Of a stretch of 64,000 nt of DNA, positions 1 to 58,700 are shown piece by piece. The notes under the pieces are model-generated. The model was not told where the DNA came from. It was given only the letters and a program-made list of their open reading frames with translations, and searched no databases. Position 1 is the stretch's first letter, and every line of letters begins with the position of its first letter. Source of the stretch: Candidatus Omnitrophota bacterium (GTDB lineage: Bacteria > Omnitrophota > Gorgyraeia > Zapsychrales > Fredricksoniimonadaceae); assembly GCA_037131245.1 (NCBI GenBank), contig JBAXRK010000001.1:24385-88384 (forward strand). Reading direction: 5' to 3'. A program made the position numbers and the translations under genes.

Positions 1-1745
1 GGATTAAAATCACGGGACTTCTTGATAAGGGCGAGCTTGTACGCCGCGCGGTCATTATAAAGAGCAGACAGTTCACGGACCACCATCAGGAATTGCCGGC
101 CGGTCTCCTGACGGGCACGGATGGAAGCCGCGTCATTATCGATACCAAAACCATCCACGCCAAAAAGCGTGCCCAACTTCTGCAGGAAGTCGGACAGGCC
201 GCCACGACGCGCCACGATCACAAAAGCGTGCAGGAGCGCCTGCTGGACATTCGCCAGCCCGCAGGGCTCATCGATCGAGAGCATGATACCGCCCACGCTG
301 CCTGAAGGGATCTGATCGCCGAGGTCAGCGTCAAAAGCCTTGATGAAGCGGAAGTTCGCCTTGAACTCTTCGCGCCCGGCCAACTCCTCAAGCTTTGCTT
401 CAACCCATTCGCCCACGATATCCAGTGCCTTGCCGGTGGCTTTGTCGCGCGCCACGTTCCCCAGGATCACCAGCTGAACGCGGGCGCCTTTGCCATCCAG
501 GTCGAGGCGCAGGAGCTGCTCAATAAGCGTCTCCCCGGTCTCTTCAGTCATCACCGTGAACAGGACATTCAAACCTTTCTGTTTCACGATACGGGTCACA
601 ATACCGAGAGTCAGATGGTTCGGGTTGGTATCATCAAGGCCAAGCTTTTTCTGCAGGGCGCGTTTGTTATGTTCCTTGAACAAAGCGGGGTCTTTATCAT
701 CCTGCGTAAAACCGTCGCGGGCCAGCGCCGAACGGGCGGCCGGCACGTAATTAGCCACGCGCAGGCCGCTATACACCGCGGCCAGTTTTTGCTCGTAAGA
801 CCTCAGCACGCCATCGAGGCCATAACCGCGCTCTTTGGTGAGCACTTCGGCCATGTTGCCCTTGCTCACAAAAACAACAGTATCGGAGTAGATGAAAGCG
901 CCTTTCATAAAATCATGCCGGCCGGCGATAGCGCCATCAGGGAAGGACGACCAGAATTCCAGGCCATTATTCCCGGTGGCATACTGCAGCTCAGGACGTA
1001 AATGGGTCAGCTTGAACAACTCCACCACACCCTGCGTCTTGCTCGTGCTATAGAAATTATGGATCGGGTCCTGATAGCCGCGATGGCGCGCCAGGACACC
1101 CAGGCCCAGGAGATGACGGACCAGTTGGCTATTGAGCGCGACTTTCATCTCTCCGGGGAAAATCCCCTGATATTCGAGGTTATGCGTGGTAAAGATCGAC
1201 GCCGGACGAGCACTGCTGAAAGCGTAAAGTTCACGCAGGAACACCGCGCCCAGGCCGGTCTGCCAATCATTGAAATGGTAAAGGTCGATCTTAACGTTGA
1301 GCCAGAACTTGAGCTCCACCGCCAGCCGCGGCAGCAGGACCGCTTCGAGATAGCCGCCAAGGGAATCCGGATGCGGCGCGGTGTAAAGATTGTTAAAGAG
1401 GTTGCCCGTCACATCAAGCGGCAGCAGGAAGGAACAACCCTGCTGTTCGAGGTACACCACCTTAAGCGGATAGCTGGCGTTGCCTGCCGGGACGGGGATG
1501 GTCATCAGGTCCACCGCGCCGCTCTGGGCGAAGAAAGCCTCGACCGAGTGGAAGCTCTTGAGCACGTCCGCCAGGAACAAAGGCTTCACCACCATGACCG
1601 CGTTACCAACCTCGGCCATCACCGGCGGCACATCGCCCATATACACATGCTGGCCGCCACCCGCGGTGGATTCACGCTTGAGCTCGCGGCCGGTCGACGG
1701 GATGATCACCGGGGATTCCATCGCGGCAAAGACCAAGGACAATTT
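1..1745 (-). other. Domain: glycogen/starch synthase (GlgA-type, GT5 GT-B)-like, running to the left edge of the window
   Basis: AGGGQHVYMGDVPPVMAEVGNAVMVVKPLF; IDLYHFNDWQTGLGAVFLRE; SIFTTHNLEYQGIFP; KGAFIYSDTVVFVSKGNMAEV; NKRALQKKLGLDD..LGIVTRIVKQKGLNVL; QLVILGN; GGIMLSIDEPCGLANVQQALLHAFVIVARRGGLSD. These are collinear with the GlgA motifs TGGLadV / hDWqt / T.HNl.yQG / sptya.E / nK..Lq..lGL..RL..QKG / q.v.LG.G / PS.fEPCGL.Q..a..yG..P.v...GGL.D. Confidence 0.8.
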
Positions 1746-28700: not shown

Positions 28701-31700
28701 CGTTCTCGGAGACTCGCCGCGCAAGCTGGTCACGATCACTTCGGGGACTTTCACCGTGCGCGCATCAACGAACACAAAGTTATCGCCGCCCTTAGTGGTA
28801 TACATGCTCGGCACATCGCGGCTGACGATACGGATCGCGCGGTCCTTGATCACGCTGGCTTTCTGTACATCCCGCACGACCTTGCCCGACAGGTCGTGGA
28901 CCTGACGTGTCACCTTATAAGTCTCGCCCTTCTTGAGCATGGCCGGCTGGCCCTTCATCAAGCTGTCAGGAAGCACCGGCGCAAAACCATTGTCCAGATT
29001 GGTTTCGCTAAGCTCGCCCGAGATCCCGCGGGCCATGGCTTCACTGATCGCCGCCATGCGCGTCGAGAAAACCACAATGCGGCCGGTATTGATATCGATA
29101 TCCGCGGTCGCCATCAGCGGCTTGCCGTCAGGGGCAAGGAGGAACGAGCCTTTTTCCTGTTTAGGGAGCGGCATGCGAACGGTAAAGGGGATCTCGCCGG
29201 GCGTCATGATGGGGAACACATCCCCGGTACGCGGATCGATCGCGGCGCCATACCCTTCAAAGACACCACGGTAGAACGCTTCCATATTCACCTGGCCAAG
29301 AGCGCCGGCAATAAACCCGAACTTCTCGGGGTTAGCTTTCTCATCGGCTTCGCTTGACCAGGGCCACAAATGCTGATCCTTCAGGAAATCTTTGGCCCGA
29401 GGATCGAACATCGGAACTTCGGAGACCATTTCCCAGGCATTCGAACCGACATTCTGCCGGTACAAGGTCTGCATACCCGTCTTAATACTGACCCCCTGCG
29501 CGAAACGGACATTGCGGTTCGTCGACGTCATGGCCGTAAAGAAGGTGTCGATCTGGGCGCGGGAAGGCACATAAATACCCGGATACTGCTTGAACTTGGA
29601 TTGGCCGGAAATAATGGACCCCACGATCTTCGGCAGGCACTCACCCACGTTCTGAATATCCACGAACCAGGTCTTGTCGGCAGGCTTCACCACCGTGCGG
29701 CCGTCCTTCTGCTGGACGATGGTCGGGAAGTAAAGGTAGTCACCGTAAACACTATTGACCAGGTAAACGCTGTCATTGAAAGCCGAAAGGTCAATATCAA
29801 GGTTGGGTATCACGCCCCAGTTGCGCTTTGCGGCATTAATGACAGCTTTCACGCGGAACAGACGCGGATTAACTTCCACGCCGGTCTGTTTGCCCACGCC
29901 CAGGCGGAACGCGTCGCCCAGCTTGAGGATGTTGAAATTACCGTCCTTAAGGAAATGCATCTTGCCGTCGAACTCAACGCCGAGGATATCGATGCCGTGA
30001 GCGGAAGCGTCTTTATACGGGATCACGATCGCGCCCCAATTGAGCATGTCATGATACTGCGGCAGGCGAACCAGCGAATAGAACTCATCGTAGGCTGTCA
30101 GGAACGTCATCGCCATCGGCAGGCCGCCGTCGATGGAATGGTTAATGAAGCCGCGGGTGATGTTAACGATATCAACCGCCGACGACATCGGCCCGCCGAG
30201 CGAGAGGCCCACGGGGCCGACGCTCAGCACATTGTCCATCTGATCGCCGAAGGTCAGCGCCAGGCTGACCAGCTGCGGATCGCGATCTTTTTTCTGCTGG
30301 AGGATGTTCTTGATGCTGGCGTTAAGCTCCAGCCAGTTGGCGCGCGCTTCGGCAAGTTCGGACGCCGACCAGGCACGTGCCATGACCGCGCGGGTGGCAT
30401 CATCCATATGGCCCTGGCCGAGGCTGTTCACAAACTCTTCCATCAAGCCCTTGGCGCCTTTGTAATCGCCATGGGATACCAGCGACCAGAGCAGGTCCTG
30501 CTGAGCCTGGCTCATCGCGGCCCGGCCGGTCATATCCGACTGCAGGGCCTGCGCGACTTTATCGGTGCGGGAGATCTGGTCTCTGAGTTTCTGAACCTGT
30601 TCATCGATCCAGATCGCGCCCAGCGGAATATTCGCCTCAATATCGCGGCCTTTAAGATGAAGACGGCTGCTGCCTTCCACCGCGTCGCGGTCGACCGACA
30701 CGCCAACGGTGCCATTGAGCACATCAAATCTGAATTTATTGAACGGTACGGGAACCATCTTGTCATCCGCGCCGGACATCTCAAGGGAGAAATACGCGCC
30801 CACGCGGCGGAGCACATCATCGGTCAGCGCCACATCCATCCCCTGCGGCACATTCGCCAGGGCCTGGCGGACCGTGTTGCTGGTAACGACCGGCGGCGCC
30901 TGCGCGTGGATATCCCCGATGATCGCGCGCGCGAAGACGGCGGCCTGCTGATCGGGCATCGCGACGGTCAGGGTTGACGGCACATTGTTCGACGAAACAG
31001 CAGCCACCGGAGCCGCCACGGCCATCGGCGCGACCGCCAGCCACACGAACAAGATCGCGGCCAGGAGCCCACGGGCACGGTTGGACTTCTTTGCTTTCTC
31101 ACCTGACGCACGCGGCGCGAAATAAGTCGGCATCATCAGCGTCTCGCCGAATACCGTCTCAGCCTTAAAATTATAATCGCGATGCCAGGCAAACTCATCC
31201 CAGAAACCGGGATGATTCTTTCTCAGATCATAGAACTCATTGACCGAATACTTATCCTGATCCGGGTGTATGGCCGCGAAGGTCTTCTTATCCCAAGCGG
31301 GTTTTCCAAAGAACGAATAGCGCAAACGCCAGGTCTGCCATAGCGGAGAGATCAGGCACGAGATCACATACTTCATGCCCCAAAGCCCCAGGATCACGGC
31401 CAGATGAGCAAAAAGGATCGACGGAGTCCAAAGGCCGAAGAAGAAACGGAACGAGGTCCAGATGATCGCCACCCACTTCAGGAAGATCACGCCGACACGC
31501 AGGACACGCAGCGGTCCGCGCGGCATCATCATCCCCGGTACAGCCGTCACGGGCGCAGGCAAGCCGATACTGGCAAAAAATTCACGGATCTCACGACCAT
31601 CATTCGGATCATGCCGGTCGTAGCGCAAATGGATCGCCGACAAGGACGTATTAATACCGAAATTAAAATTACGATCCCTGTAAAGCCTGCCGACAGACCG

Positions 31701-34700
31701 GTCAAGCGCGCAAAGATTGATCGCGTGATCGGACAAGCACTGGGCCGGGTCAACCGAGACGCCGCAGGAAGCGCAGTTATCCCCCTGCTGGTGTTCGTGG
31801 CGGATCGCTTCCTGGCCCATCATCGGAATGATAAGGCCTTCATAATATCCGCGGCTCCGGCCGACAGGATTAAGATCAAGGCCAGCCTTGACCTGGCGCA
31901 AGAAACCCAGGAAAGATTCGCTGCCGCGACTTACCATGACTCCGGCATTGATGCGATACTGCTTGATGCTCTTGTTATTCAAATTATAGACCTGGCGCTC
32001 GGGGGAAATATCCTCAACCTCTCTCCTCAAGGTCTTCTCGTCCCTCGGCTTCTCAATGAAGCGGTTGACACGACCTTCCTTGATATCGAGGAACACGCCG
32101 ATCTCGTGAGCTAAAATATCATGTTCAGAAGCCAACGGCGCCGCGATGGTACTACCATTGCCTTCCACCAGCTCTACCGGGCCGACATAAATACAGTCAC
32201 CATTCTTAACGATCACGCCGCCCAGGCCACGCTGCTTCAAACCGCGCGCGCCAAGGCTTAAGGTCATCAGATTAGCCTCCAACATGCTGGGAACATGTCC
32301 CAGTTTGGCAACTGAAGCCATCGGCAGCGGCTGAATGACCTGACGGATATTCCTTCTCATCAAGAGAACACCGATCCGCAGGCTCCCTACCGTGCGGTCA
32401 CGGAAGTCGGCACAATCGAACGCAGCGCCATTGACCATCGTTAACCGACCGGCCTCCGCCGCCACAATACGGTCACGGAAAGCCGACGCCGTTTCACCAG
32501 GGAACAAATGCTCGTGAGCTTTCAAATAGGCCCATAAACTACCACCCTCGCGGATGTCTAACAGAATGGCCGGGACCCTGATATTCGTGTCATTGGCCAG
32601 AGCCTGGCGAACACGCTCAAGGTCATCACCCTCCGTTGAACTGACTGGGACGATCAGCATATCCAACGCCGGATCAGACGATTCATCGGCAAGTGACGTG
32701 ACCATGGCACTCCAGTAGCGGTTCAGCCGGCCTGTATTAACGGTCCCATCGAGCAAGGCATCAAGTGAGAAATGGCGCTTGCGCAGGAACGTCGCATAGG
32801 TATCGCAAAGGGCCAGGACGCCCATGCGGGTAACGCCGGAGTACCAGTAATAGAAGAGCGCGCCGATCTGCGAGAACAGAGAGATGCGCACCACGCTGGC
32901 CGGATCGAACCCGTCAACAGAACCGAAGAACATGCTGTAATACATCATAACGATCTGTGCCAGGAGCGGCATCACCAGCACCGTCTGAACGCCGCGGTTG
33001 ACATTGCGCGTGAACCAGCGCTGGGCCGCCTCAAAACTGCTGGTATCTTCGCTGAACTCAGGCTCCATCAATTTCTGCCACTGAACCTGGAGCTCGGCGA
33101 TCACGGCTTCCTTGTCGGGATACAGCGGCATGACCTTGTTGGTCAGGTCCATCTCATTGATCACGCCGCTGAAGAAACGGCGGCGGATCACCGCTTCGTT
33201 CCACTGCATACCGAACACGAATGTCCCGATCGCCGCCAACGGACGCAGCACCCATCTACCGTGCCAGGTCTTGGAACGGAAGGCCACATATCCGGCCCAA
33301 CCCTGGTGCGTCTTGCTTGACTCGATCGCCCTGATCCTCAAGACCACGATCATGTGCAAGGTCGCCAGGAGCTCCAGCGCTGCTTTGAAATCAGCGGCCT
33401 GTTCCGGCGTCATTGCCTCGCGCGCCATCTTTTGCTCAACCGCTTCAATGGTGCTATTAATATCTTTCGCCAACGACAAGTAAGCCTGATTGACCTTCTC
33501 ACGGCCGGTTGAGAACACCACCTCGCTCAGCGGCGTGATACCGATCATCCACTGGATCTCCATCACCATCGACTCAAGCTTGTCAAACGCGCCATCAACC
33601 GTTGCCTCAGCATTCCAACTACCGGCAATACGGGTAACATTTTCAGCACCCTGAGCCAAAGCCTCATAATTAATGACCTTCAGCGATCCCCTGGTCGATC
33701 CGGGCGCGGCAGATGCTTCCGGAATAGTATGAGCTGGCTGCGTCCGAGTAAACACCCGTTCACGCAGCTTGGTATTGAAGAAGCTGAAGAAATAGATCCC
33801 AAGGAGGGTAGCAAAGAACCCGGTCACGAACAGCAGGAGCGTATTCTCCTCCCAGAGGCGCACCCAATACTGAGACCACATCCGGGCGTTTAACGAAGGA
33901 CCGCTATGACTATTCCCGAAAGCGTTGTTCGCGCGATCGATCTTCTTGAGAAGAGGACTGTATTGATGCAGCAGCACATTCCAGGAACCAAGCTTGCCAT
34001 CAGCATTCAACAAGGCCTGACGGAAGATCTTGTCTTTTTGAAGTTCATTAAGCAAGCCGTTATCCAGGGCTCTTCCCAGAACAGCCTGCACCGCCTCACC
34101 CGCGGGATAGAACGAACGTCCGCCCCAGAACCTGGTCAGGCCGGGAGCTAGCGACGTGTTACGGCCCTGCTCAAGCATGGTCACCAGGATCTCGGAATTC
34201 TGCTGAGCTGCCGCCTGGTCACCAGCCGCCGCCACTGCCATCACACGGACAAAATGTTCTTCTTTCGGAGTCATCAGATCCGAAAGTAAGCTGATCGCCC
34301 CCCGGTCACGGACACCGCCAAGCGCGTACGCGAGCGCTCCGCGAGCCATCGGGTCTTTGTGTCCCGCCAGGGCTGCTTCAAAATATTTTAACCTGGCTGA
34401 CGTGCGGCCAACCTCTGACCAGCGCGACTGAACTTCAGCCGCCTTCACCGCGACGGCAGAGTCATCATTAAGGCCCGGCAATGACGCCCACGCGGCCGCC
34501 GGATCCTGGCTCTGAGCCAACTGCATCATAGCGGCAACACGGCTATCAACGTCGGACCCATTCATCAATTTCTCGATCACATCCGCCATCTGGCCGCGAT
34601 CAGGCGCGTCAACCTGGACAATGCTACCCACCGTCCTGAACTCATTAACGCGATCAATGAACTTGGCAACTTCAGCATCAAAACGCAGCGGCCAGGAATT

Positions 34701-37700
34701 ATCCATATTGACCAGGTTCGGCAGGTCGTCCATGATCCGGTACTCGCGATGATCGAATTTCACCTTGCTCTGGAAGGACGCGGCCACATCATAAATCGTT
34801 CTGATCTGATCCTGTTCCAGCAGCGCCATCAAATAAGCATCCGAATAACGGAACGTTCCGGCATTGAAACGTTCCACGAACGCGGCCGATACTTCATTGA
34901 GGGCGCCGGAGCCAAGCTCATAAAGAGAATTCGCGATAGCCATTTCTTCATTCTTAAACGCTTTGAACTGCTCCGGATCGAACTGATCCATATGCCCGGC
35001 GATCGCCGCTGTATGCATATTAAGAAGCGCCTTGATCGCGCCGGCACCATGCGTACGGCCAAGCGCCATGCTACGGGCGGTGCGCTCTTCGGAAGTCATG
35101 CCTTCGCGCTGAATGTCGAGCGCGGCCACGATCGGATTGATGTTCACCTGTGAAGCCACCCGTGATGTGTCGATCTTCGAAAGCATCATCGCCGCGGCGG
35201 TGCGCACCTGGCCGTTATCATCACCCAATAACTCAGTGGCACGAACCACAATATCTGAAGGCACCGCACTGCGGCCTTTAAGCGCGTTACCAAGAGCATT
35301 AAGCGCATGGATCTTCTGCGCCGGGAAAGCATCATCAGCAAGGCCCTTCATGGAAGCATAAGCGCTCAACACCGCCTGGCGTGATGATTCAGGCGACCTT
35401 ACCAGACCTTCAATAAAATTGATCCGGTTGATGCGGTCATAATCGCGGCTCATCTGAGCACGCGCGCGCAAGTCATTGATGACCTTGGCCGTCTCGGACG
35501 GATGAGCATCAAAGACCGGCAGGATGCGCGCTAGAGCGCCATCAACGTCGCCGATCGCGACCGTCTCAGGATAAGACTTAAGCGTCATATAGCCGTTGAG
35601 GTAAGCCTCGATCAGCCAGGCGGTCGGCAGGTTCTTCTCCACCCCGGCGGTGGCTTTCATGAACTCCACGATCAGGGTCGGATCGGTCTCAACGTTAAAG
35701 CGATTGGCCAGCACCGTGAGCGCGCGGGTGTCGCCGGTATTCCCGCGGGAAGCCAGCGCATTAATAATATCTTTCCTGAGATCCATCGACCCACGGTCGT
35801 AATAAGCGTTAAGCGCGTCATTAAGAGGATCAACAGAAGCCGTATTACCCATCGTACGCTCGAGCGTCACGCGGCCCCAGAGGTCAATGAGAACGCGCTT
35901 CTTGTCATCGGTCAGGCCCAGCTTCGCCGCCTGTGCCAGGCGCTCGGCCTGGTCAAGCGTCAGGATTACGCGGCCTTTGCCGAACTGGGCGGCCGCGTCA
36001 CGCACCTGAGCATCACTGGCGCTGTGGAGCTGACCAATGAACTGATCAACAACGGAGATCGTCACACTGAACTCACGGGCAATAGCCGGCCAGATCGTCG
36101 CGTCCAAACCTTTGTTATTGGCAACCGCGTTCATAACATGACGCACAACCAGATCATGATGATAACCATTAAGTTTCTTGAGAGCGTTAACATACGCGCT
36201 GTAGGCATCAGAAGCCAGGTCACTACCGGCGCCGCTAACACGCTGATGGATCACAACGCCCAGTTCATAGACGATCGGAGCGACCAGGTCGCCGGACTGC
36301 TGCGGATAACGGGCGGCATAATTCGCGACCGTGATCTTGGCGGAAACATCCTCACCGTTGAACGCGTTCTTCAGGGCGGGCGCGGCAACAGCAGGTTCAT
36401 ACGCCGAGATCCAGGCCTGCGCCATCGCACGGACATCCGGATCCTTACTAAGGGAAAGCTGTTCACGGGTCGCGGTAAAGAGCAGGTCCACTTCACCGAA
36501 CGACTGGCCGTTCAAGGTCTGGCCACGGGTGGCATCCCAAACCGTCGCAAGCACTTCATTGTCGGAGGTGGAACGGACAACCTGCGCCAGGATATCGCGA
36601 GCAAAAACCTGCTGTAAAGCGCCCAGCCGGCGGATCGCGTTCAAACGGTCTTCCCCGAACCCGCGCAGGGCCTGTACCGCGTCGCTGTTGCCGGCGGACC
36701 AAAGCTGTTTGAGGGCGGCGTCACGTTTTTCGGGGTTACCGGCCAGCGCGCTATTGATCAGCGGTGCGTAGATGAGCGACTTCTGATCCTGCGCGTTCTT
36801 AAGTGTCGGCACCAAAGAGCGGTCAATGAGGTACTGAGCGAAAATCTCTTTCTCAAACGCATTGCGCGTCTTTATCTGATCATTGATCGCGACAACCAGA
36901 TCATTAAAATACCGGATCATATTCCCCTTGCCATCGAGATCAGCGCCACTGTACGCCGCAGCCTGCAGTTCAATACCGCCGAATAACCTGTTCCAACGGA
37001 ATTGATCCATTTTACCGACAAAGAGCTTGGTCATATCAACATCGTTGGCACCGAGCGTGGCCACATCCATGACTTCGGAAGCCACCGACGCCTGCGGATG
37101 GGCCTGCGCCGCGCGCACCGCCATGTAACGCACATCGCGGTCGCTGGAAACTGCAGCCTTCTTAAGAACATCCTTAGTATTTGACAATGTGCGCGAGAAT
37201 ACGGATGGCTCCGTGTTATGTAAGCGTTTGTACAAGCCTTCGAGCGCGAAAAGTTTAGCGGTGGCGGCCTCGCTGTAACCTTCCTTATCCGCAACACGAT
37301 ACTTGCCCAGGGACTGCTCTAGCACATCAACCAGTCCGGGAACATCACTTTCTTTGATCAGGTTCGCATCGGCATAGGCACGCAAGATGATCGGGCCAAG
37401 GATACGAGTTGAGCCGCTGGCGTTACGACTGATACGGTAGCGTTCGTAAACCTCGGTGCCAATGGTCTTAATTACATTCGAAACTCGCGCCGTGATCGAC
37501 GTTACAGGATCTCCGGCAGAAGATGTTTTCGAGCCTTGATTAAGGTCAGCTGGCGTAAACTTAATGTCAACAATATCATCAATAGCCAGCATCCCCCACC
37601 AGGGTTTGGCTTCGGCGTTAAAGTAGAAGAGGTCATGGTCAACAATATAACCAGGCACGCCACGGTCGCCGGACTTAGCCAAGGCAAGAAGAGCTCCCAT

Positions 37701-40700
37701 CCGCTTGTTCGCATCAAGCTTGTCATTCTTCACCACCGACCATAATACTTTCGAGTTTGTTGCCACCAGATCAGAGGGCTTGATCTCAAACGGCGCATTG
37801 GTCATGTTCTGCCACAAGAGCAGGCCGGAGCTAGCCATGTCGCCCTGACCATGCGTCGCGGGCGTAATACCGGGCGCAGGCGGAACATCATCAAAAGAAG
37901 GCGTGTTAAGCTTCGGCGCCGCCGGAACCTTGGTGGTTTTGGCCTGGTAAGTGTTCGTGGCAACTGGCTTGATCGCGGCATTATTATTGGTGGTCGCGGA
38001 GAACACAACACCATTCGTATCATTGGCAGGAGGAGAGCTCACATCATCCACAGAAGACACCGCGCTTTGCTTGATTTGCGGAGCGCCGGAATCCTTTGAA
38101 ACGTGATCTTTGTTCACCTGATGCCACCAGAAAGCCGCCATCATGAGAGCCATCACCACCGCCAGGCCAACAAATCTCAAACCTTTTCTCGACGCTTTAG
38201 CCACTTTAGACGTTTCAGCAACAGAAGCCTTCGGCGCTTCAGCCGCCGGCGGAGGCGTGGTCTTGGCTGACTCGGTCTTCGTTACGGGTTTGGTCGCAGG
38301 CGCCGTAGGCGGGGCGGGCGGGGCGACCGGTGTTGTGTCCGGGGCCGGCGCTTTAGCCGGTTTACCGCCAGCAACTTCATTGGCCGCGGCAATAAGCGCC
38401 AGCACATGATCGCGATCAACGCTGAAAGCCGACTGATTATCCTTGAGCCACTGGACATACCAGCGCAACAAGGCCGGCGAAGCCTTAAGGGCCGCGATCT
38501 CGCGGGCACGCACTTTGTTCTCACTGGCTAACGGATCACGGAGATGCTCGATCTCATGTTTACCAAAGATCACTTTTGCCAGATCAACGGGATACTGATA
38601 CTGCCCGTTGGCTTTGGCGGTCAAGGCCGGGTTAACATAGAGCACCAGGGTGTTCTTGTCCTGACGGAAACCGAACCTGACCGACCCGGCAGCCGGATCC
38701 ATCACGACCAGCACGGACCTGCCGCCAACATCATGGCTCTGGCCTTCGAAACCGGCGGTGAGCCACGCCAGATCATCCTGGCTCGGAGCATATTTATCAC
38801 CCGCCGGCACTCCGGCAACAACTGCCGGATATTTTCCTTCTGCTGAACCGGCGCAGGAAGAATTACCAGAGATCATAGCCATCACAATAGCCGCGATCTG
38901 ATCAGGAGTTACACCAGCTGTCTTCAAATTCTCAACCAACTTCGAATATGAATCTACTGAGTCAACATTGGAGAGCTTCTGCTTTAACTGCGCATTCTCG
39001 ACCGCCAGGCGCTCATGTTCCGCCGCCGTTTGACCAGCCAGCGCCAGTTTATCTTGCGCCGCGATCTTTTCAACTTCAGCAACAGCCAACTTTTTCTCAG
39101 CCTCTGCAACCTTCTGTGAGTCTTTAAGCTCCTGAGTCAAATGCGCGATCTCAGCCGCTGCTATTTTCTCCGCTTCAAGACGGGCGATGTCAGCCGCCGC
39201 GGCCAGTTTGGCTTCGGCAACTGCCGCTACCTGCTGGGCCTGTGCGAGCTTTTGGTCATCCTCAAGCTTCTGCTTTAATTGAGCATTCTCAACCGCCTGA
39301 CGCTCGTGCTCAGCGGCAGCCGCCAGCTTGATCTCAGCAGCAGCCGGTGCCGCATTGCATGTCGCGCAACCTGATTTAACAGGGGGCACAGTCGGTATAA
39401 ACATCTTTGCCGCAGGAGCAACGGCGCCCAACAGGTCAAAATCGCTGTTCTTTGCCGGAATGACCGGGGCATCTTCACCTGCGGGTGTCAATTCTAATTC
39501 CGGGGCTTTCTTGCCCGCAGGCTCAACAGGCTCGGCGGCCGCAAACAAAGGAACACCCAAAGCCAGATCCGCATCCGACACCTCTGCCTCGCCCCTGGCC
39601 TCATTCTTTGCCTTAGGAGCGGAGATCGGGGTACCATCAGCGCTAAAAATACTCTCTACCTTATCATTGACCGGATACGAGAACATCGCCGGACCAACGC
39701 CTTCCAGCGAAGCTAAAGACAAATCCAGAAGAGTAGCATCCGGAGCAATATCTTTTTTCTCATCGCCCAACAACTTCTCCGCACGCGCGATCAACATCGC
39801 CGCATAATTGGCAGTAGGCAATGCCCCCTGGCTCTGATCGGCCAAAGCAGCAAGATATTCAAAGAATAGATTATGGCGCACCAGGACGTCGATAGTGCGG
39901 GCCTGAATATCCGACTCCGTCGCTTTCTGGTCGATCCAATGTAACCACAAGTTCACCATAGCCCCGACCAAAGCCACGGTCGACGCGCGATGAGCATAGT
40001 TGACACTAACCAAGATCTGAGTGCTCGCCAAATCAAGTTGCGCAATAATATCAGGAGAACTATTAACAATCTTAAATATTTCAGTAAAAAGACCCTTCTT
40101 GCTTTTTGCGTCTATGAGCTTGATGGCTGCCTCTAACGCCGTCATAGCCCTGGCGATCGCTTCACGTTGCTGGGAGACCTTGAGATCAAAACGAGCCAAC
40201 GATTCTCTGGCAGGATAATGACGGACTCCGTTAAGCTCTTTCGTATCAGAAAGCTCAATGCTTTCGGTGCTGCTCGTCGTCTTCTTTTGTTCAATGGCAA
40301 GGCGCGCCAATTCGGCCATTCTGGCCACCTGCTCAAGCGAAGCAGCTCCGAAAACTTCAGGCAACCGAACAGTAGCGTCTGTCCCTGATGCAAGCGCCTT
40401 GTGTGACAAAGAGCTTTCAATATTGTTCCCATCTTCTGACCCTGCCTTAACAATGGCTTCGGGGTTCAACTCAGCCACTTGCGCCGGTGCGTTTGAAACC
40501 AGGATGTTCTCAGGTATCGAAACAACCTCGGCCCTAAAGATCCCCTCCACCTGGTCATTGACCGGATACGAAAACGCCGCCGGGCCAACGCCTTCCATTG
40601 ACGCCAGCGACTTTTCACGGCCTTCGATATCAACCACCGTCAGTTCAACCTTCTCTTCACTCTTGGCAGGAGCAACCGGCGCTGCCGCAGCAACAGCCGT

Positions 40701-49700: not shown

Positions 49701-52700
49701 TGTCTCAAATTCCTTCCTCAAGGCTTCCAGCTTATCCTTTTTATCCTGGCTCATTTTCCCGTTCTTGGCCAAAAGATCCTGCCCCAGGAGGAAGCGCCAG
49801 GCCTGGTTCTTCTCTTCCCACATGAACGAGAACTTATGCAGTCTCGATGAGCCGAAACGATCTTTAACATTCTCCTGTTCACCGACCTTCCAGGAAGGAG
49901 CACCGGCGCCCATTTCACTGAAACTGATCTTCACGATCAATTGGTACAGCCTCATGAACGCCGACATGAAAGCCTTGCCCTCTGCCTCGTTCTCATACCA
50001 ATGGGAATAACGGGTTTTAACAAGATAGGAATACAGCCACTCGTCCAAACGGCCCTGGCCGTTGATCGCAACGCCTTCCGACGTCAACACCTGACGCAGC
50101 ACATACATTTCAAGAGGAACAATGCGATGACGCGCGCCCTCACCCGGATTGGCTTCCTTCTCAAGGTCATCGTTCGATACAACGTACATACCGGACGGAG
50201 ATTTCTCACGCGGCAGATCCAGCTCTTCAAAATCAGCAGCCAAACGGATGCTCTTAACGATCGTCTCGATCAAACGATGGCGGGTACCGACATTGGCATC
50301 TTTGCTGCCAGCTTCCCCGGCATAAAGGTCATATGACAGGCCGAGCTTCGTAAAAAGCTCCTTGACCTTGCGCTCGATCTCCAACGCGCGCGTCGATGAC
50401 ATCCGGTCATCGCGGGCGATCACAGAACCCCTCACCACCATTGAACGGGCACTTTCCGGATGATCCACCCGGCGCATCATCTCGGCCACGACCCGGCGTT
50501 GAAAACGCGCCGCGGAGATCAACGGACGGACCGTCTCAAGGGAGCGGAGTGCCGCTTCATAATTTCCACGACCGAACGCGTCTATCAACTCGCTAAGCGC
50601 AATAGCCGGACCTTCTTCAGCCGCAACCCTCTCTTTATCCTGACGGAAATACTTGCTGGACGGATCGAAAGAATTATCCCGGATATGAGCCATCCGCTTT
50701 TCGATCCTGCGCCACTCTCTGGCACGGTCACGGGCACTCGGGATCTTGGAAACAACCTTCTCCAGGCGCGGCAGGACAGCATTCCTGAAGATCGTATAGT
50801 TATCAAATCTTCCCAAAGCCTTACGGGCATCAATAATGACATTACTCTGATTCGGTTTCCATCCGGCGCTGATCAAGTCCTGATTATTGTCGGCATTGAC
50901 ATTGACCTTATGGCTCCGACGAATAGCGCGATAACCGGCGGTCAGAAGGCTGTAAATCAAATACATAAGCGGGAACGCAAGGACGGCAGTCGCTATGCCT
51001 TTGGTCCAGCCCCAGACATTGGCCCAGAAATGGCTCTGCTCATAATTCTGGATGGAATCAACCTTGATCTGCGGCACATCCGAAACTTTGATCTGCTTGT
51101 CGAACGCCGAAAGCTTAAGGACATCAGGATCATTCTTACCATTCTTCACTTTCTCAATAACCTTATCCAGCGTCCTCTCGGCGTTGCTCTTCAGGAACGG
51201 AACAAAACGCTGGATCTTGCTGATCGCACCATCACTGGTCATGTCGGAGGCATTCAACTCGGATTCAAATCCGGCCACGCCAAGATCCGTAAAGAAACCG
51301 CTCGCGTTCTTCTTGCTCGCCACCGTCTTGCCATTGGCCTGCAGACGAACCGCGGCCGGCTTCTCACCCAAAGTCCAGGTCTGGCTCTTCGCATCAAACT
51401 TCGGATGAACATACACTTGTGATAAAACATACGCTTTGCCATCAAGGTTAACAGCGTAATTAACCACAACACTGTACAGCCCCTTGGCCTGTCCATTCTC
51501 TATTTCCAGCGAGTAAGCTGACTGCTCCCAATTATCGAAATGCAGCTGAACATTAGCCGGTGTGCTTTGACCACGTCCCTCGAAACCCTTGAAAGCCAAG
51601 CGGCCGCTAGCCAGGTCAAAGCCCTGATAGCGCAAGCCCTGCTCTTTCACGCTCTCGGCTTTATAAACGCTGTGACTGTTTGTCATGATCTCGCGGCCGT
51701 TCAACTGAACAACTTCACCGCTACCAACCGCTTGACCCTTCATTGATTCAAGCGCCATGCGCAACACCGTTTCGTTAACATCAGCCCCGGTCTTGAACGT
51801 GTTCCCATTGAGCTTGAACTCATGACTTTCGAGCGCCAACCTCGAATTGAGCTCATCGCCGTATTTCGAAACCGTCATCCAGCCGGGAACACCCTGTGGC
51901 AGGCCGGTCGAAGGCTTGCTGTCACTAAACTCGTTCATTGTCACAAATTCACGGCCGCGATTATCGAGGATCTGCCGGTCGGCCTGCAGCACATACTTAA
52001 ACGCGATCTCACCCTTAAATTGATTAAGCTGATCACGCAAATGCTCCCAACCGCTCAGCATATCACCGGCGGTAAAACTATGCCCGTCAGCTACGCGAAC
52101 ACGGCTATAGACAATATAACCTTTGCCATCCGGCGCGTTGGTGATCAAGCCGGTATTATCCGAGAAGGAATCAACCTGCTCATTCATACCATGTGTCTGG
52201 GTCTTTAGAGCCTTAAGAGCGATATCAATAGAGCCCTGGCCATTATTAACTAAATCCTCCGTATAGAAGAAATATGTCCGCACGCCGTTCACTTCACGGA
52301 CGCGGTCACGGCCCTGCAGGTCGATCAGCGCGGTATAGGCCACATCATTCGTGGTCCCGGCTTTCAGGTCGATATGATGCTCGATACCGGCATAAGAGAG
52401 CGTGCCGTTGCGGAAAATGCGATTAGCCAGGCTGAGGTCATTGAAGTCCGTGATCTTGTTGCCATTAACATCGAGCAGCCAGCTTTCATCCGTCAGGTAA
52501 TTGCCAACCATCGTCCTGGCCGACGTCGCCACGCCCAGGGCACGGGGAACGCCCACATACTGCTTGGTCGTGATCTCGCCATTCGCGCGGCTCTCGACCA
52601 CATTATTATTCCCGTCCTTGATCTCGGTGTGCTTATCATTGAGCAACAGGCTGGTGACCTCGGACTCAATGCGGGTCAGGTCGCGGCTGGCCTCACCCTG

Positions 52701-55700
52701 AAGGGCGCCGATCACCACATTCGCGATATTCGTATTAACGGTAAACTTGGCGCGCGCCGATGTAACGAACCCATGGAGATCAACTTTAACAACGGACATA
52801 TCAGCATTCGTCCGGGCCGCCTGGATGGACGTCTTGAGGTTCGCGGTCGCCAGCTGGATATCGGCAATATCCGCCACGCCATTGATCGCGTCCAAGATCG
52901 GCTTGCGAATAAAGAACGTGGCCGACTTGGTCTCGCCGATAGAAACCTTCTTGGTCACGTCACTCAACAGGACCGTTTCCACATGCGAAGCAATGATCGG
53001 GCCATAACCGTTATTACCGGAATTCTCTAAACGCCCGCCGGCCACCTTCTGAAGCGTCTGCTCTCCAACATACGGAACAACCACGCGGTGTTCCTTAATG
53101 ACCTGGCCATTAAGCACATTCTGGAAAACGATCGTATATTCAGTGAGCGCGAATTTCTGGCTCTTAAGCTCCGCCGCCGTCTTATGCGCCGCCAGCCACG
53201 CCGCTTCACTCTGAATGACCTGAGTGGCTTTTTCTTTATAGAATTGCAGGTTGGCATCCGGCGTGAACGACTTGGTGGTCTCAACCATGTTGGTCTTATT
53301 AAGGAAGTCGGCTTTCTTAAGATCGACCAGGAACTTCTGGGCGCTCAAGTTCACATCACCGATGATCTGCTGATTGATCGTACTAAACCACGCAATGCCA
53401 TCCGCCTTGGTCGTATCCGTGAAGGACAACCAGCCTTCGGGAGCGCCCGTGGTATCAATAAGCGTGATCTCTTTAATCCCAAGATCGATCAACGCCTTGA
53501 GAACCGCCGGATCCCTCAGTGACGCCTGGCTCACGAACTGCGCTGTGCCATCCGGCCAGATCACCAGGAAATTGCGGTTCACAAAATCTTTCATCGTGAG
53601 CGTCAGCTCCGACGTCATCCCCGGCACCCTGTTTTCCACCGCCTGCGACAGGATACGGAACCGCAGGACGCCCTCGGGCTTGCCAACAACCTGGACCATA
53701 TCGGTCATCCGGTCATGAACCTTCTTGACCAGCTCGCTCTCGCTCTTCATCTCCGCCGCCAACTGCTCGGCCGTCGCTTCGCCCTTCACATAGATCGTGT
53801 ACGTCTCATCAGCCACATTCTCGACTTCCAGCGCGTCAGCCTGATACGCCGCCTGCTGGAGCTTGAGCAGCTTCTTATATTCATTATCACCGGCCAAGCC
53901 CGTCTCATACGTCGCCACAACCTTGCCATTCTCAACCAAGACCATCTGATCAGCCGCGAACGGCTCACCGCCGATCAAGTAACGGCCACTGACGCCATAC
54001 TGAACCGCACCCTTCACATACTGGGCGGCCTTGAATTTCTCAACCTGGGATTTATTGGTCACCGTCACCGTGGGGCCGTCCACGAAATGGATAAAGCCGC
54101 GGTTGATCACACCCGCCAAACGCTCCTGCGCGATCACAGTGTTCGCGTCAATGCTGCGGATATTGTAAGCAAACGACGGATCGAAGATCCCCCAGCCGCT
54201 GCCATCTGTCGGACGGACAACCAGCGTATCCCCGGTGAGCGGCAAGCTGCCCAAACGCTGATGCGCCTGGATATCGGCCTGCTGCGCCGCCGTCAGGTCC
54301 ATGAACCGGGTCGCGCCGGCCGGCAGCACGGAAACCTTCTCAGGCCAGACATTGCCCTGATAAACGATCGCGCCGATATAATTCGTATCGGTCTTATCGA
54401 AGATCGCGCTCCACTCATAGCTCGGATAGAAACGGTTACCCAGCGAACCATTGACCGCGCTGACGATATTCGTATCCACCGGGCGGTTGGAAGACGTATT
54501 GAACGCCGTCGCCTTGTACGTGTCAGCGATCGTCTCTTTCCCGCCGAACATCGCGACGATATCATGCGGCCAGGCCGTGAACTGATCGGCCACCAGGCCA
54601 ACGCCCGTACCCGCCACGCGGCCTATAAAGGAAGGCTTCGGCGTGCGGTAAGCACCGGTAAAATCGTAATGCGGAGCCGTCGCCGGTTGACGCAGGACCA
54701 CGCTGCCATCCGCCAGATGAACCTCTTCCAGGCTGTTCACCTGGGAAGCCTGGGTCTGGAACTCGGTGATCGCTTCGGTGAAATTGTCACGAATAACGCC
54801 CGCGATCTTCTCACCGTTATAAACGCCGCCGATGCGGATCTCTTCATTATGGAGCGCTTTACCAGTGCGCAACCTGACCAGGAGCGGCTTGCTCATATCG
54901 GTATTCAGGCGGCCCGTTTCGTAATCGTACATATCCTGGGTCACGTAAACCGGCGCGCTAAAGACGATATTGTATTTGATCTCATTGTTAGCCGGGTTAC
55001 GCGCCATCACCACCCCGTTCATCCGGGCGGCGTAATAGGTGCCGTTCACGTCAGGCATATAACGGATAACCTGGCCCAGCTTATTGGTCTCAACGCGATA
55101 AGCTACGCTCTTATCCACATGGCTGAACAGGTCGGCCCGCAGGATATTGGTATTCGTTTCAATATCATTGGCATATTCAAAATCCTGGTGAACGGTGCTG
55201 ATCTGGATCGCATGGCCACGGGGCTGCCAAGTGAACTGATTACGGCCATCGCCAACCGCCCTCAGGAAAGGCAGGCCGAGATAATGATGCGGCATGCCCA
55301 AAATAGCGCGGCCATTATCGTAATAGGAAACCGAGAACAGCGTTTCAACCTGCGGCTCATCATCATAAGCGGTGAACGATGTGCGGGTGGTCCAGTTGAT
55401 CGGCCCGATGGTCTTGATCACGCGCATCAGCAAGGACGGCTCGGAGTACCAATCAGCATCCTGGCCCTTATTGTCGTAGCTGATCACGGTGTCGTAGATC
55501 TGGAAAGACAGGTCAAGCCAATTCGCGCTGGCCAGGGCGATGTCGGAAGCGCTCATCCCGTCCATGTTGATCAGGCTAACCGTCTGCTGGCCCCATTTAT
55601 AGTAGGTGCCGCCCGGCAGGTTAGCGTTAAAGAAGAAGGCGCCCTTACCGGAAACGTCCTTGCCCACCAGGTCGCCGTACATGCTGAAACTGGCCGCCGC

Positions 55701-58700
55701 GTTATACTGATAGCGCGAGCTGTGACGGAGCTTGTTGCGGTCATTCCCCAGATTCCTGATGTACTGCGCATCCTGATCGCGGGTGAACGTCTTCGCGCCA
55801 GCTTCCAGCAGAGCCTTGGCTTTCTCGGCCGCAACCAGAGCCGCGCGCGTTTCGTTATAAGTCGTAATGTTATTGGTGAGGGTCGCGGCTTCATCAAGCT
55901 TATCGGTGATCTGGCCAGCCACCGCGCTCAACCGGCTGCTTACAACCTCAAGCGGCGTTTTGCCGGTTACCAGGTCCGGATCGGTCACTTCAAGCAAAGC
56001 CTGAACCAGCGTGCGCCAACCGCGCTTGGGATCCATCTGGGTAAAGTTCACGGTCACGTTGCGCTTGGAGTTATCCCCAAAGCCCAGGCGCTTCATGTTG
56101 AACTCGGCCCCGCGCTCATTGTTATTGAAAGCCGCTTCATCGGTCACCGACTTCGGATCGAAAATGAACACCACCTTACCGGCTTTGACCTGTTTAAGGA
56201 TCGAAGTGCTTTCGGCACCAGAGAGGCCCTGCGGCATCCCGTACTCCTTGCCAGCATGGTTAATGGTGACGATCTCATTATCGATCGGGGAGATGAAGAT
56301 ATAAGCCGGGGTACCCTTCACGGCTACAGCCTTGACCAGGGGAACATTAACATTGAACGACCCCTGAACCTGGCTATAACTCTGTGAAGGCTTACCGAAC
56401 GAGCTGCTGTCTTCGGCACGGGATGTCGTCCCCTGGAAGACAGCGGTGAACAAAAGGACGGCCAGGGCGAGGCTAAATATGTGCCTCAAGGGGGTAAAGT
56501 TACCCCGGCCAGTGACTTTGACGGAGAACCCATCAAAAGTCTGGGTGACGAACCCTAAATTTTTGCGGATCTGTTTTACTGTATCAGATATACGGGATGA
56601 GAGCTGCGCAAGGGCCGCGGACACACCTTCGGCCGGGGTTTTCCCTTCCTTGCGGACAGAGAATCCTACCGGTTCCTTGCTTGCGCCCTGATCGGGCTGG
56701 GCAGTTCTGGGAGATCTATATACTGGGCCCTGACCGACACTTTCCACACCCTTCACACCCGGCATTCTCAAGGCGGTTCCGGCCCCGTTCTCTTTACCGG
56801 CACCGACACGTTCCACACCCTGGGCATTGCCTAATCCGCGTAGAGCCTTGATCCCGTTCTTGATACCGGTGATCACACTCTTCACGAACCTGGTGTTACT
56901 TCCCACACGCTGCGCGTGGGTGGTGCCATCAGTCAGACTACGGGCACCCTTGTTTCCATCTTCATTCGACTTACCGATCGCGTTACCGTTACCGGCAGTC
57001 GGGCCTTCTTCATCAGCGGCAGACACACGACCCGATTCCGTACTAGCCACACCACGGGCGGCACGTCCCCTGTCAGAGCGGGCGTTCATGATCTCCAGAC
57101 GGATCCTGGTATACAACCCAAGAGCGATCCTGGTGACCTCTCTCCACACCTTCTCCACCGCGGGCGCACTCACTAAACCCTTGACAGAACCGGTGTACAG
57201 AGCCTTCATCACATGAGCCATCTTCTGGCTCAAAGAGCGAGTACTACTACCTTCATCGACAGTAACCGCGAACAGATCCTCGCGGGCATTCGTGTTCGAC
57301 CTACCATTGTCCCTGGCGTGATTGCGAGCAGTTGAACGGCCAGCCTGGACATTAGCCCGTTCATTGCTTTCCCTGTTATTACCAGCAACCTTGACCTGCG
57401 CTTTAGCGCCATTTACTGCCCTACGTACTGCATTCACTACGATCCTACGTGCTACATTAACAGTATTCGCTACATTTGCTTCTGTGCTACCAGTCCGTCC
57501 TACTTTACCTTCAGCGCCGATACCGGACAAACCTAGCGGTCGGGCGCCGATCTTCTCGACGACAACGAGTTTCTTTACCGCGGCAACGAGCCTGCCGATG
57601 GCCACAAACACTACATTCACTACATTAACAGTAACAATACTATCTCTCTTACCCTCCACGACCGCTCCGACTCTGAGAGAGAGTCTGCGGCCTGTGATAC
57701 GACCCGAGTCGCCGAATACCGATTTAAGCCATTTCCAGAAACTCAATATTTGGGCCGCAATCAGCTTGCGGTTCTTGATGCCAATATAGAGAATAGCTCC
57801 AAAGGCAAGTAAAGCGCCAACAGGCGTAGTTCCGCCAGCGCCAGCACCGGTCGCAGCCGAGGCCGTACCGGACGTTCCAAAGGTAAAGAGCAGGGTCATC
57901 AGGCCCATACCGCCAGCCATCGGCATCGCTCCGCCAGGCAGGTTAGGCATTGAAGGCACCTGGGGCATCGTAGGCACGGTCGGCAAATTCGGCACAACCG
58001 GCATAGTCGGCATAACCGGGCCTGTCGGACCATTCACCGGGCCCGTAGGACCGATAGGACCAGGCGGCAGGCCATTGCCCGGAATAGTATTAGACGAAGT
58101 CGTTGGCAGGGCCGTGGTATTGATCGGATCCTGCTTGGGTTCCTGTTTCGGAGCCTTGGAAGCGACCACATTACCAAGATTGACCACTAAGGTATTGCCA
58201 GGGATAGCCGGTTCAGGCTGATCAAAGGTTGTGGCCTCGGATTCAGGCGCGTTAGCCAAAGCGCCAGCCAAAGCGACCATAGCCACGGTCTTCTTGGCCT
58301 TAGGCATAGCCCAACCAAAGAATTTACGGAAAACCCCTGGCTTAGTGGTCTTAAGCGAAGCCGGGGCCTGAACAACTGGCGCAGGCGGCGTTTGAATTTT
58401 TGAAGCAAAACCATCAAACTTGGCCACGACCAGCGGCGCATTCTGCTCATTGAACTTGCGGATCTCTGGCATGCCGGTAAAACGACTTGCCAGCTTAAGG
58501 GCTCCGGCAGCCTGCTGACGCCTGCCTTCCCGCACAGATCCATCCTTGTTAAAGGAAAGAAGTTTGCGTATTTCTCTGTCGCCTGGTCTCAATTCGTAAG
58601 TGTCCGTATCATGGCTATCGGCAAACATCATCAACCGGGCCGCGAGCGCGACCAATTCATCCCTGGTCATCGTGCGCTGAGGCACGCCGGAAACAGTAAA

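Follow-up and report, generated by a model that had tools for sequence, protein, structure and literature searches.

The 64,000-nucleotide stretch studied here (the window; positions 24,385 to 88,384 of contig JBAXRK010000001.1, assembly GCA_037131245.1, from a Candidatus Omnitrophota bacterium) probably represents an internal piece of an Omnitrophota-type giant gene of more than 64 kb that encodes one polytopic inner-membrane protein, in which two hydrophobic segments, seg2 and seg3, would act as internal start-transfer (signal-anchor-like) helices; the probability of this joint reading is put at about 0.6. A first-pass annotation of the window had listed seg2 and seg3 together with a further segment, seg1, as in-frame stretches resembling signal peptides or signal anchors. 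The three strings are all found in the minus-strand reading frame, and the coordinates given for them at the time (seg1 58246-58296, seg2 56427-56492, seg3 30990-31075) are a few bases off those reported below. In the following, amino acid (aa) numbers count from the upstream end of this frame in the window, and nucleotide (nt) numbers are window positions.

A giant open reading frame of the Omnitrophota class

Six-frame analysis revealed a single minus-strand open reading frame (ORF) at nt 3-63998 with 21,332 codons and 0 stops, open at both window ends, and all remaining stop-free stretches are shorter than 1,000 aa. About 30-35 transmembrane (TM) helix candidates lie along the ORF, and Pfam searches identified an M23 domain, HEAT_2, GT9, two radical-SAM (S-adenosylmethionine, SAM) modules, PPDK_N with PEP-utilizers (phosphoenolpyruvate, PEP) and GT5. 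Giant ORFs of more than 20 kb occur in most Omnitrophota classes (Seymour et al. 2023, PMC10066038), and their products are rich in TM helices and have large domains predicted to be extracellular (PMC10066038; 10.1101/2023.11.21.568195; 10.64898/2026.06.07.730766). The described 'Archaeovorins' carry many TM helices, glycosyltransferases, pyruvate phosphate dikinase domains and, in regions predicted to be extracellular, HEAT repeats (West-Roberts et al. 2023, 10.1101/2023.11.21.568195), and a DeepTMHMM analysis of 916 such proteins found a starch synthase, GT1 and radical-SAM module and discarded internal signal-peptide calls as artefacts (10.64898/2026.06.07.730766).

The window protein resembles the Omnitrophota giants in its ORF of tens of kb, in a density of about one TM helix per 370-1,000 aa, which amounts to dozens, in its large predicted extracellular stretches, in its HEAT repeats, glycosyltransferases including starch synthase, radical SAM, pyruvate phosphate dikinase domain and a peptidase, and in its mostly unannotated, poorly conserved sequence. 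It differs from them in that the divergent SecA_DEAD domains and the C39 or S8 peptidase domains typical of the class gave no Pfam match at E ≤ 1 within the 21,332 residues of a gene that runs past both window ends. Size, TM density, domain set and nearest relatives thus indicate that the window protein fits this class, of which the general multi-TM architecture with large extracellular domains is known already; this protein is a new, very divergent example.

Large domains bracketed by helices of opposite charge bias

The topology was read from hydropathy and from the positive-inside rule, by which K/R-rich flanks of TM helices stay cytoplasmic. All non-overlapping 19-mers with a Hessa sum ≤ 4 were listed, and their 15-residue flanks were scored for charge. 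The features on which the reading is built are the following.

nt 56481-57776, minus strand: basic stretch before seg2 (aa 2075-2506, 432 aa; isoelectric point (pI) 11.3), predicted cytoplasmic
nt 56421-56489, minus strand: seg2, LRHIFSLALAVLLFTAVFQGTTS (aa 2504-2526), in-to-out helix of signal-anchor type with a 15-residue core
nt 50997-56423, minus strand: OUT1, 1,809 aa, TM-free, acidic (pI 5.9), no Cys, predicted non-cytoplasmic
nt 50940-50996, minus strand: putative stop-transfer TM helix (aa 4335-4353), flanks 0/+4, followed by RAIRRSHK
nt 30990-31079, minus strand: seg3, RARGLL...AAVSS (aa 10974-11003), the strongest in-to-out segment
nt 23043-31010, minus strand: OUT2, 2,656 aa, TM-free, acidic (pI 6.0), predicted non-cytoplasmic
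nt 22986-23042, minus strand: putative stop-transfer TM helix (aa 13653-13671), flanks 0/+5, followed by PKRWFSLKSMKR
nt 33786-38180 including its TM helices, minus strand: third bracketed domain, HEAT-repeat (HEAT_2, E = 2e-13), 1,427 aa (aa 8626-10052)

The in-to-out seg2 (flanks +3/0) pairs with the out-to-in helix at aa 4335, and the in-to-out seg3 (+5/0) pairs with the out-to-in helix at aa 13653. The HEAT-repeat domain is enclosed by a pair overlooked in the first-pass annotation, namely an in-to-out TM helix at aa 8607-8625 (+3/0) and an out-to-in TM helix at aa 10053-10071 (0/+3). Within OUT1, OUT2 or the HEAT domain no 19-mer exceeds a Kyte-Doolittle (KD) mean of 1.26; these domains are acidic (pI 5.9-6.2), and the short membrane-adjacent pieces predicted inside are basic (pI 9.5-11.3). 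Because of the positive-inside charge bias of the bracketing helices, OUT1, OUT2 and the HEAT domain are all predicted to be non-cytoplasmic. Each segment had been described as preceding kilobases of helix-free, Gly/Asn/Thr-rich sequence that ends at another TM helix. This applies to seg2 (1,809 aa to aa 4335) and to seg3 (2,656 aa to aa 13653) and fails for seg1, which lies 136 aa from the TM helix at aa 2056; the Gly/Asn/Thr enrichment is present but modest (21.4% in OUT1 and 18.4% in OUT2 versus 16.5% in the whole protein). The suggestion that the chain weaves in and out of the membrane with about 1,800 and about 2,650 aa exposed outside agrees well with the opposite-charge brackets around OUT1 and OUT2 and with the helix at aa 4335, which is conserved in three relatives.

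Orientations called from K/R content alternate in 14 of the 19 consecutive helix pairs at Hessa ≤ 2 (p = 0.03), and in 12/15 to 18/25 pairs over Hessa thresholds of 1.5-4.0 (p 0.02-0.06). The non-alternating pairs come from closely spaced groups of helices, in which inspection by eye shows an additional, weaker partner. Cys content, Chou-Fasman propensities and the depletion of hydrophobic 19-mers were also tried as inside/outside markers and set aside as too weak to discriminate.

Moreover, self-BLAST revealed a paralogous module of about 340 aa common to OUT1 and OUT2 (28-32% identity, E = 3e-34), which would fit a location of both domains in one compartment.

nt 52452-53471, minus strand: copy 1 of the paralogous module (aa 3510-3849), in OUT1
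nt 24582-25511, minus strand: copy 2 of the paralogous module (aa 12830-13139), in OUT2

In the mechanism we propose, the K/R-rich N-flanks of seg2 and seg3 would remain cytoplasmic while the helix inserts and engages the Sec translocon, probably with SecA, and the 1,809-aa and 2,656-aa domains would be threaded to the non-cytoplasmic side until export is halted at the stop-transfer helices of aa 4335 and aa 13653 with their K/R-rich cytoplasmic flanks. The HEAT-repeat domain would be exported by the same kind of bracketing. The ATP-, SAM-, PEP- and nucleotide-sugar-dependent enzymes would be kept in the cytoplasm past the last TM cluster, and the M23 domain and the OUT modules would lie outside.

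Layout and hydrophobicity of the three segments

Within the window alone, 1,896 codons precede seg1, 2,503 precede seg2 and 10,973 precede seg3, as the first-pass annotation had said in speaking of thousands of codons, and none of the three stands at the polypeptide N-terminus, as a cleavable Sec signal peptide would require. A basic n-region and an h-region of about 7-15 residues are present in all of them (KAKK + 12 in seg1, R..RH + 15 in seg2, and KAKKSNRAR + 14 to the first Pro in seg3), and sequence inspection of the three segments found neither a lipobox Cys nor a twin-arginine motif. In seg3, the n-region KAKKSNRAR is followed by the core GLLAAILFVWLAVA and then by P-MAVA|AP, the uncharged hydrophobic run amounting to 20-24 residues overall. 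The Kyte-Doolittle 19-mer mean (KD19) and Hessa 19-mer sum are 2.48 and -0.85 for seg3, 1.85 and 1.45 for seg2, and 0.95 and 10.5 for seg1. For a helix of about 19 or more residues the insertion energy is favourable in seg2 and seg3 and unfavourable in seg1, whose uncharged core has just 12-15 residues. The reading as anchors holds for seg2 and seg3; seg1 resembles a signal peptide but has neither the length nor the hydrophobicity of a stable membrane helix and drops out as an anchor.

The surroundings of seg1 comprise the following features.

nt 58242-58310, minus strand: seg1, AMPKAKKTVAMVALAGALANAPE (aa 1897-1919), Sec-signal-peptide-like n-h-c motif beginning at a Met
nt 57834-58241, minus strand: Pro/Thr/Gly-rich linker after seg1 (aa 1920-2055, 136 aa; P 18.4%, T 13.2%, G 14.0%)
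nt 57777-57833, minus strand: out-to-in TM helix (aa 2056-2074), followed by KNRK, flank charge 0/+4
nt 62649-62705, minus strand: weak TM candidate MASIVAAAANMGIIAQTII (aa 432-450), KD19 1.71, Hessa sum 3.66, within the chance range

The layout of seg1, similar to that of Sec signal peptides typical for Gram-negative bacteria, is M-PKAKK / TVAMVALAGALA / NA, then PE, with 6 K/R in the N-flank, and the linker behind it is almost charge-free (longest charge-free run, 117 aa). It is possible that seg1 forms at most a hairpin with the TM helix at aa 2056 around the 136-aa Pro/Thr-rich loop, with the loop outside, because both flanks of the pair are basic. If seg1 truly crosses the membrane, aa 432-450 must be a real out-to-in helix, which keeps the M23 domain outside. 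On a par with the hairpin is the possibility that seg1 is a chance Ala-rich patch and that aa 1-2055 lie entirely outside.

As an observation of its own, aa 1898-2078 (window 57765-58307) resemble a complete small exported, C-terminally anchored protein fused in frame. The NCBIfam models of C-terminal sorting signals (PEP-CTERM, GlyGly-CTERM and similar) gave no match at the segments consisting of a TM helix and a basic tail.

Side markers and a whole-chain model

Known members of the M23 family are extracytoplasmic peptidoglycan enzymes or activators, and the M23 domain was used as the outside marker. GT9, the radical-SAM modules, PPDK and GT5 must be cytoplasmic because they depend on ATP, on SAM together with a reduced Fe-S cluster, on PEP or on nucleotide sugars. 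The markers and the remaining TM clusters are listed below.

nt 63606-63878, minus strand: Peptidase M23 / LytM-type domain (aa 41-131), Pfam E = 4e-14, PDB matches EnvC and M23
nt 801-9449, minus strand: cofactor-dependent enzyme modules after the last TM cluster, identified by Pfam and motifs, with the five inside markers that follow
aa 18184-18340, minus strand: GT9
aa 18650 and aa 19164, minus strand: CxxxCxxC motifs of the two radical-SAM modules
aa 19586-19911, minus strand: PPDK_N
aa 19963-20035, minus strand: PEP-utilizers
aa 20787-21066, minus strand: starch-synthase GT5
nt 31341-31511, minus strand: TM hairpin (aa 10830-10886), basic flanks on both sides, followed by a basic 91-aa loop
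nt 17100-21101, minus strand: two multi-pass TM clusters (aa 14300-14487 and aa 15137-15633), each of which could contain an even helix count

If the M23 domain outside and the cofactor enzymes inside are functional, the number of membrane crossings between them must be odd. At least one model with 33 helices agrees with every charge-bias call, with M23 outside and GT9, radical SAM, PPDK and GT5 inside; it counts the weak aa 432 helix and seg1 as crossings. The ATP-, SAM- and PEP-dependent modules, which had been suggested to stay inside, are indeed all placed past the last TM cluster and are predicted inside in this self-consistent model. An alternating topology with the cofactor-dependent modules inside is therefore supported by charge bias and domain logic, and the protein, as far as can be read from its sequence, very probably weaves through the membrane.

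Several local features accompany these markers. The M23 domain keeps HxxxD (HLGND) and has HFG in place of HxH; the structures most similar to it are the LytM domains of EnvC, which are non-catalytic, and its role may be that of an activator or of a binding domain and not of a peptidase. The two radical-SAM modules are paralogous (aa 18561-18999 and aa 19076-19539, 27% identity; window 6033-8054), with the GT9-like domain just upstream. A Cys cluster, C-x2-C-x8-C-x8-C, lies at aa 10742-10763 (window 31710-31775) in a protein with otherwise just 0.3% Cys; it may be a metal site and was taken as a hint that aa 10072-10829 are cytoplasmic. A TM candidate at aa 10340-10358 was dropped in view of this downstream cluster and of the hairpin at aa 10830-10886, which is basic on both sides. 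Just past the last TM cluster, a tandem repeat of 282 bp (94 aa; 4.7 copies, 88% matches) covers aa 15764-16327 (window 15287-16604), and its expansion looks recent, with copies up to 94% identical at the protein level. On the plus strand opposite the giant gene, antisense ORFs of up to 890 aa (nt 53715-56387, 15375-16862 and 29370-30977) are most likely shadow ORFs arising from its codon bias.

Relatives and conservation

The window protein is a nearly orphan sequence. A word-indexed search of 5.8 billion proteins, which misses one relative aligned by BLAST to aa 2757-3362 (P0001), returned no homologs for the seg3 region (aa 10701-11500) or the seg2 region (aa 2400-3400), and scans of GTDB genome contigs, JGI metagenome contigs and IMG/VR yielded no match to the window sequence or its contig and no relatives. 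A full HMMER search with the paralogous module matched only 6 proteins among 1.84 billion representatives; P0007 and P0008 came from a further, separate search. The detectable relatives are 35-49% identical and all partial, and four of the five nearest are from metagenome-assembled genomes (MAGs) of Candidatus Omnitrophota/Omnitrophica, the remaining one being labelled Elusimicrobia.

P0001: 1,625 aa, partial, Omnitrophota MAG, 49% identity to aa 3486-4210, TM-free
P0002: 2,127 aa, partial, Omnitrophota MAG, carries the paralogous module
P0003: 5,596 aa, partial, MAG labelled Elusimicrobia, aligns to aa 3756-4300 and aa 4484-6175
P0007 and P0008: Omnitrophica MAGs, 35-38% identity over aa 4340-5950

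The TM helix at aa 4335 with its basic C-flank is conserved in P0003, P0007 and P0008, and so are the TM helices at aa 4876, 4912, 4975, 4997 and 5723, with the same charge bias. P0003 shows a comparable order of elements: a NAGPA domain (E = 2e-16), a TM helix, the K/R loop KKMASFRSSRGTRPSRFGGR, a signal-peptide-like helix that ends in ASVAEA|AVP, and then a TM-free domain of about 2,570 aa, the end of which is homologous to OUT1, followed by a TM helix and RLRRL. The signal-peptide-like helix of P0003 is analogous to the window segments and cannot be aligned with them. P0002 combines the module and a GH158-like clan GH-A domain (E = 2.9e-6) in a single TM-free region, which terminates in a TM helix and RRIVRIRQRKR.

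The best-conserved part of the protein is aa 4354-5960 (window 46119-50939), with 35-38% identity to P0003, P0007 and P0008 and four to five TM pairs.

nt 46359-49373, minus strand: conserved TM clusters (aa 4876-5015 and aa 5723-5880) around a 707-aa domain (aa 5016-5722)

The 707-aa domain carries the invariant motifs DADHHxRTEDIW, GENAF, EGLxGDDYVAEDS, YRRGKxWMY and WDGFGF, with DADHHxRTEDIW and GDDYVAEDS falling in the highly conserved part at aa 5480-5720, and has no Pfam or PDB match, and aa 4354-5960 may be an uncharacterised membrane-embedded enzyme. In PDB sequence and profile searches with five 5,000-aa chunks and the conserved domain, M23 was the sole match.

An Omnitrophota MAG contig, L001 (GCA_026387535.1, JAPLLO010000070.1), first appeared to carry a relative split into three genes at module borders. 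This candidate was rejected: of the sites between the three annotated genes (2948-3128 and 10040-10073), one consists of a stretch of Ns and the other is probably a frameshift, since the frame of the downstream 'gene' stays open for 60 codons within the upstream one. The real ORF of L001 is longer than annotated, and database lengths of such proteins are therefore underestimates.

Comparison with shuffled sequences

Composition shuffles of the window protein served as the null model. Given the length of the protein and its high content of Ala, Val and Leu, the usual hydropathy thresholds are weak here, and KD ≥ 1.6 was dropped as a TM criterion for a protein of such size and composition, the shuffles matching the observed count. 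Strongly hydrophobic stretches are 3-6 fold enriched over the shuffles, and clustered: clusters with Hessa ≤ 1.5 number 15 (versus 3.8 ± 2.0 in shuffles) and those with Hessa ≤ 0 number 7 (versus 1.2). No single segment is significant from its own sequence, and the support comes from context.

Several results weigh against the reading of seg2 and seg3 as start-transfer helices of one polytopic giant. Clusters with KD19 ≥ 1.6 number 32, compared with 36.5 ± 5.3 in shuffles, and shuffles yield about 0.7-1.2 segments as hydrophobic as seg3 and about 3.8 as hydrophobic as seg2. The alternation of orientations is only modestly significant. The true N-terminus of the gene lies beyond the window, so that the starting orientation is not fixed, and the TM counts in the clusters at aa 5844-5880, 10830-10886 and 15137-15633 are fitted, not determined. 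The stretch aa 5881-7090 is basic (pI 9.7) and yet outside in the consistent model. A weak NAGPA-like match (E = 0.003, under the Pfam cutoff) occurs at aa 16939-17104 (window 12687-13184), in a region predicted inside, and the same family is clear (E = 2e-16) at a predicted outside position in P0003; either this match is a false positive or the C-terminal topology is more complex. The protein-index, GTDB and JGI searches gave no homolog that covers seg1, seg2 or seg3. AlphaFold2 models of the conserved domain (3-sequence alignment; predicted local distance difference test score (pLDDT) 40.6) and of the OUT module (2 sequences; pLDDT 37.3) are unusable.

Origin and possible cleavage of the segments

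Compatible with the start-transfer reading is the idea that the segments stem from N-terminal signal peptides of formerly separate genes for secreted proteins, which became part of the ORF by in-frame fusion and were retained for their start-transfer function, and from which the n-h-c look of seg1 and seg3 may be inherited. This origin is regarded as tentative. It would account for seg1 beginning exactly at a Met and, with the PT-rich stalk and the TM helix plus KNRK, resembling a whole small exported protein, for the signal-peptide-like segment of P0003 starting with a Met right after the preceding TM helix and KK, and for the duplicated module common to OUT1 and OUT2. However, Met makes up 2.6% of the residues, so that a Met near an n-region is weak evidence, and there is no Met near seg2; nor was a relative found with the modules as separate genes, the borders in L001 being the N-gap and the probable frameshift described above.

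The first-pass annotation had further placed A-x-A sites at the segments and suggested that signal-peptidase-type cleavage could divide the precursor into separate products. Such sites are present in seg1 and seg3; seg2 has none, with TTS|RA as its only candidate. Pro at +1 blocks signal peptidase I. The more obvious ANA|PE of seg1 and VAA|PV of seg3 carry Pro at +1 and are blocked for this reason, which leaves ALA|NA in seg1 and AVA|AP, with Pro at -5, in seg3. Cleavage at the candidate sites is possible but unsupported.

A polyprotein cut by signal peptidase I on the outer side of the membrane at seg1 (ALA|NA), seg2 (TTS|RA) and seg3 (AVA|AP), whose OUT products would keep a C-terminal anchor in the manner of flaviviruses, is judged unlikely. 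In its favor, seg1 and seg3 are built like canonical n-h-c signals, in that their cores are short or interrupted by proline, a helix breaker stands at -4/-5 and A-x-A is present, and the analogous segment of P0003 likewise ends in A-E-A|A. Under a strict, admittedly crude n-h-c rule with A-x-A, the window protein contains 4 motifs (seg1, aa 4974, seg3 and aa 15372) against 0.94 in shuffles (p ≈ 0.025), and cutting of giant Omnitrophota proteins is an open question in the literature (10.1101/2023.11.21.568195). About one such motif is expected by chance, though, and two of the four matches sit inside multi-pass clusters; chance alone often produces (-3,-1)-compatible sites where a hydrophobic stretch is rich in Ala, and the loose rule gives 11 motifs versus 7.4 ± 2.7 in shuffles, which is not significant. 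seg2 lacks A-x-A, and the two most obvious sites carry Pro at +1; a plausible site is also missing from the in-to-out helix at aa 8607 and from the helix at aa 4950 of P0003 (P0003 aa 302-320 has one), and the uncharged run of 20-24 residues in seg3 is typical for uncleaved anchors.

That the three segments are merely buried hydrophobic stretches of a huge Ala/Val/Leu-rich soluble protein with no membrane contact appears very improbable. The equal frequency of KD19 ≥ 1.6 stretches in shuffles and the position of seg1 far below any TM threshold would agree with it, and for seg1 alone it is plausible; the enrichment and clustering of strongly hydrophobic stretches, the asymmetry and alternation of flank charges, the conservation of TM segments in relatives and a domain content that needs both compartments all speak against it. 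Least credible are internal starts that would give separate proteins with true N-terminal signal peptides: an ATG does stand at the first residue of the seg1 n-region and an ATG-ATG 19-20 codons before seg3, but the region upstream of these ATGs contains nothing like a Shine-Dalgarno sequence, the only candidates for seg2 are GTG/TTG, and nothing in the uninterrupted frame points to a gene border.

Comparison with known systems and implications

Internal start- and stop-transfer sequences are textbook elements of membrane-protein biogenesis. In AcrB and SecD/SecF, in-to-out helices act as start-transfer signals under the positive-inside rule, and large loops need SecA; their periplasmic loops have a few hundred residues, compared with 1,400-2,650 residues for the loops predicted here. 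A bacterial parallel to seg2 and seg3 is reportedly offered by the FbcH cytochrome b/c1 precursor of Bradyrhizobium japonicum, a polytopic protein that Thöny-Meyer et al. (about 1989-1991) are said to have described with an internal signal-peptide-like segment before an exported domain; its two products are reportedly of ordinary size, with processing shown experimentally, and it is not related in sequence to the window protein. The flavivirus polyprotein (PMC6756788) is likewise a multi-pass product of one ORF in which internal signal and stop-transfer sequences put alternate domains on opposite sides; it differs in being of about 3,400 aa rather than more than 21,000 aa, in belonging to the eukaryotic endoplasmic reticulum, and in its cleavage by host signal peptidase, which is proven there and hypothetical for the window protein.

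For the Omnitrophota giants, it is an open question in the field whether they act as one chain or as fragments, and it is disputed which enzyme modules face outward, predictors sometimes putting glycolytic or other metabolic modules outside. TM predictors disagree, some localisations are doubtful, and cleavage by C39 or S8 peptidases has been posed as an open question (10.1101/2023.11.21.568195). The published work on the giants contains no analysis of internal signal-peptide-like segments and proposes C39 or S8 proteases, not signal peptidase. The charge-bias reading yields a coherent side assignment, with the paralogous module, HEAT repeats and M23 predicted outside and the cofactor enzymes cytoplasmic, and the window gives three exact junctions that bear on the question of one chain or many. 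If the polyprotein reading were true, the ORF of more than 64 kb would be a bacterial 'membrane polyprotein' that releases separately anchored surface and cytoplasmic products, and this would answer whether Omnitrophota giant proteins act as a single polypeptide. If the loops are truly exported, they would have about 10x the length of internal periplasmic loops in those bacterial membrane proteins that are well studied, which would raise a mechanistic question for Sec/SecA.

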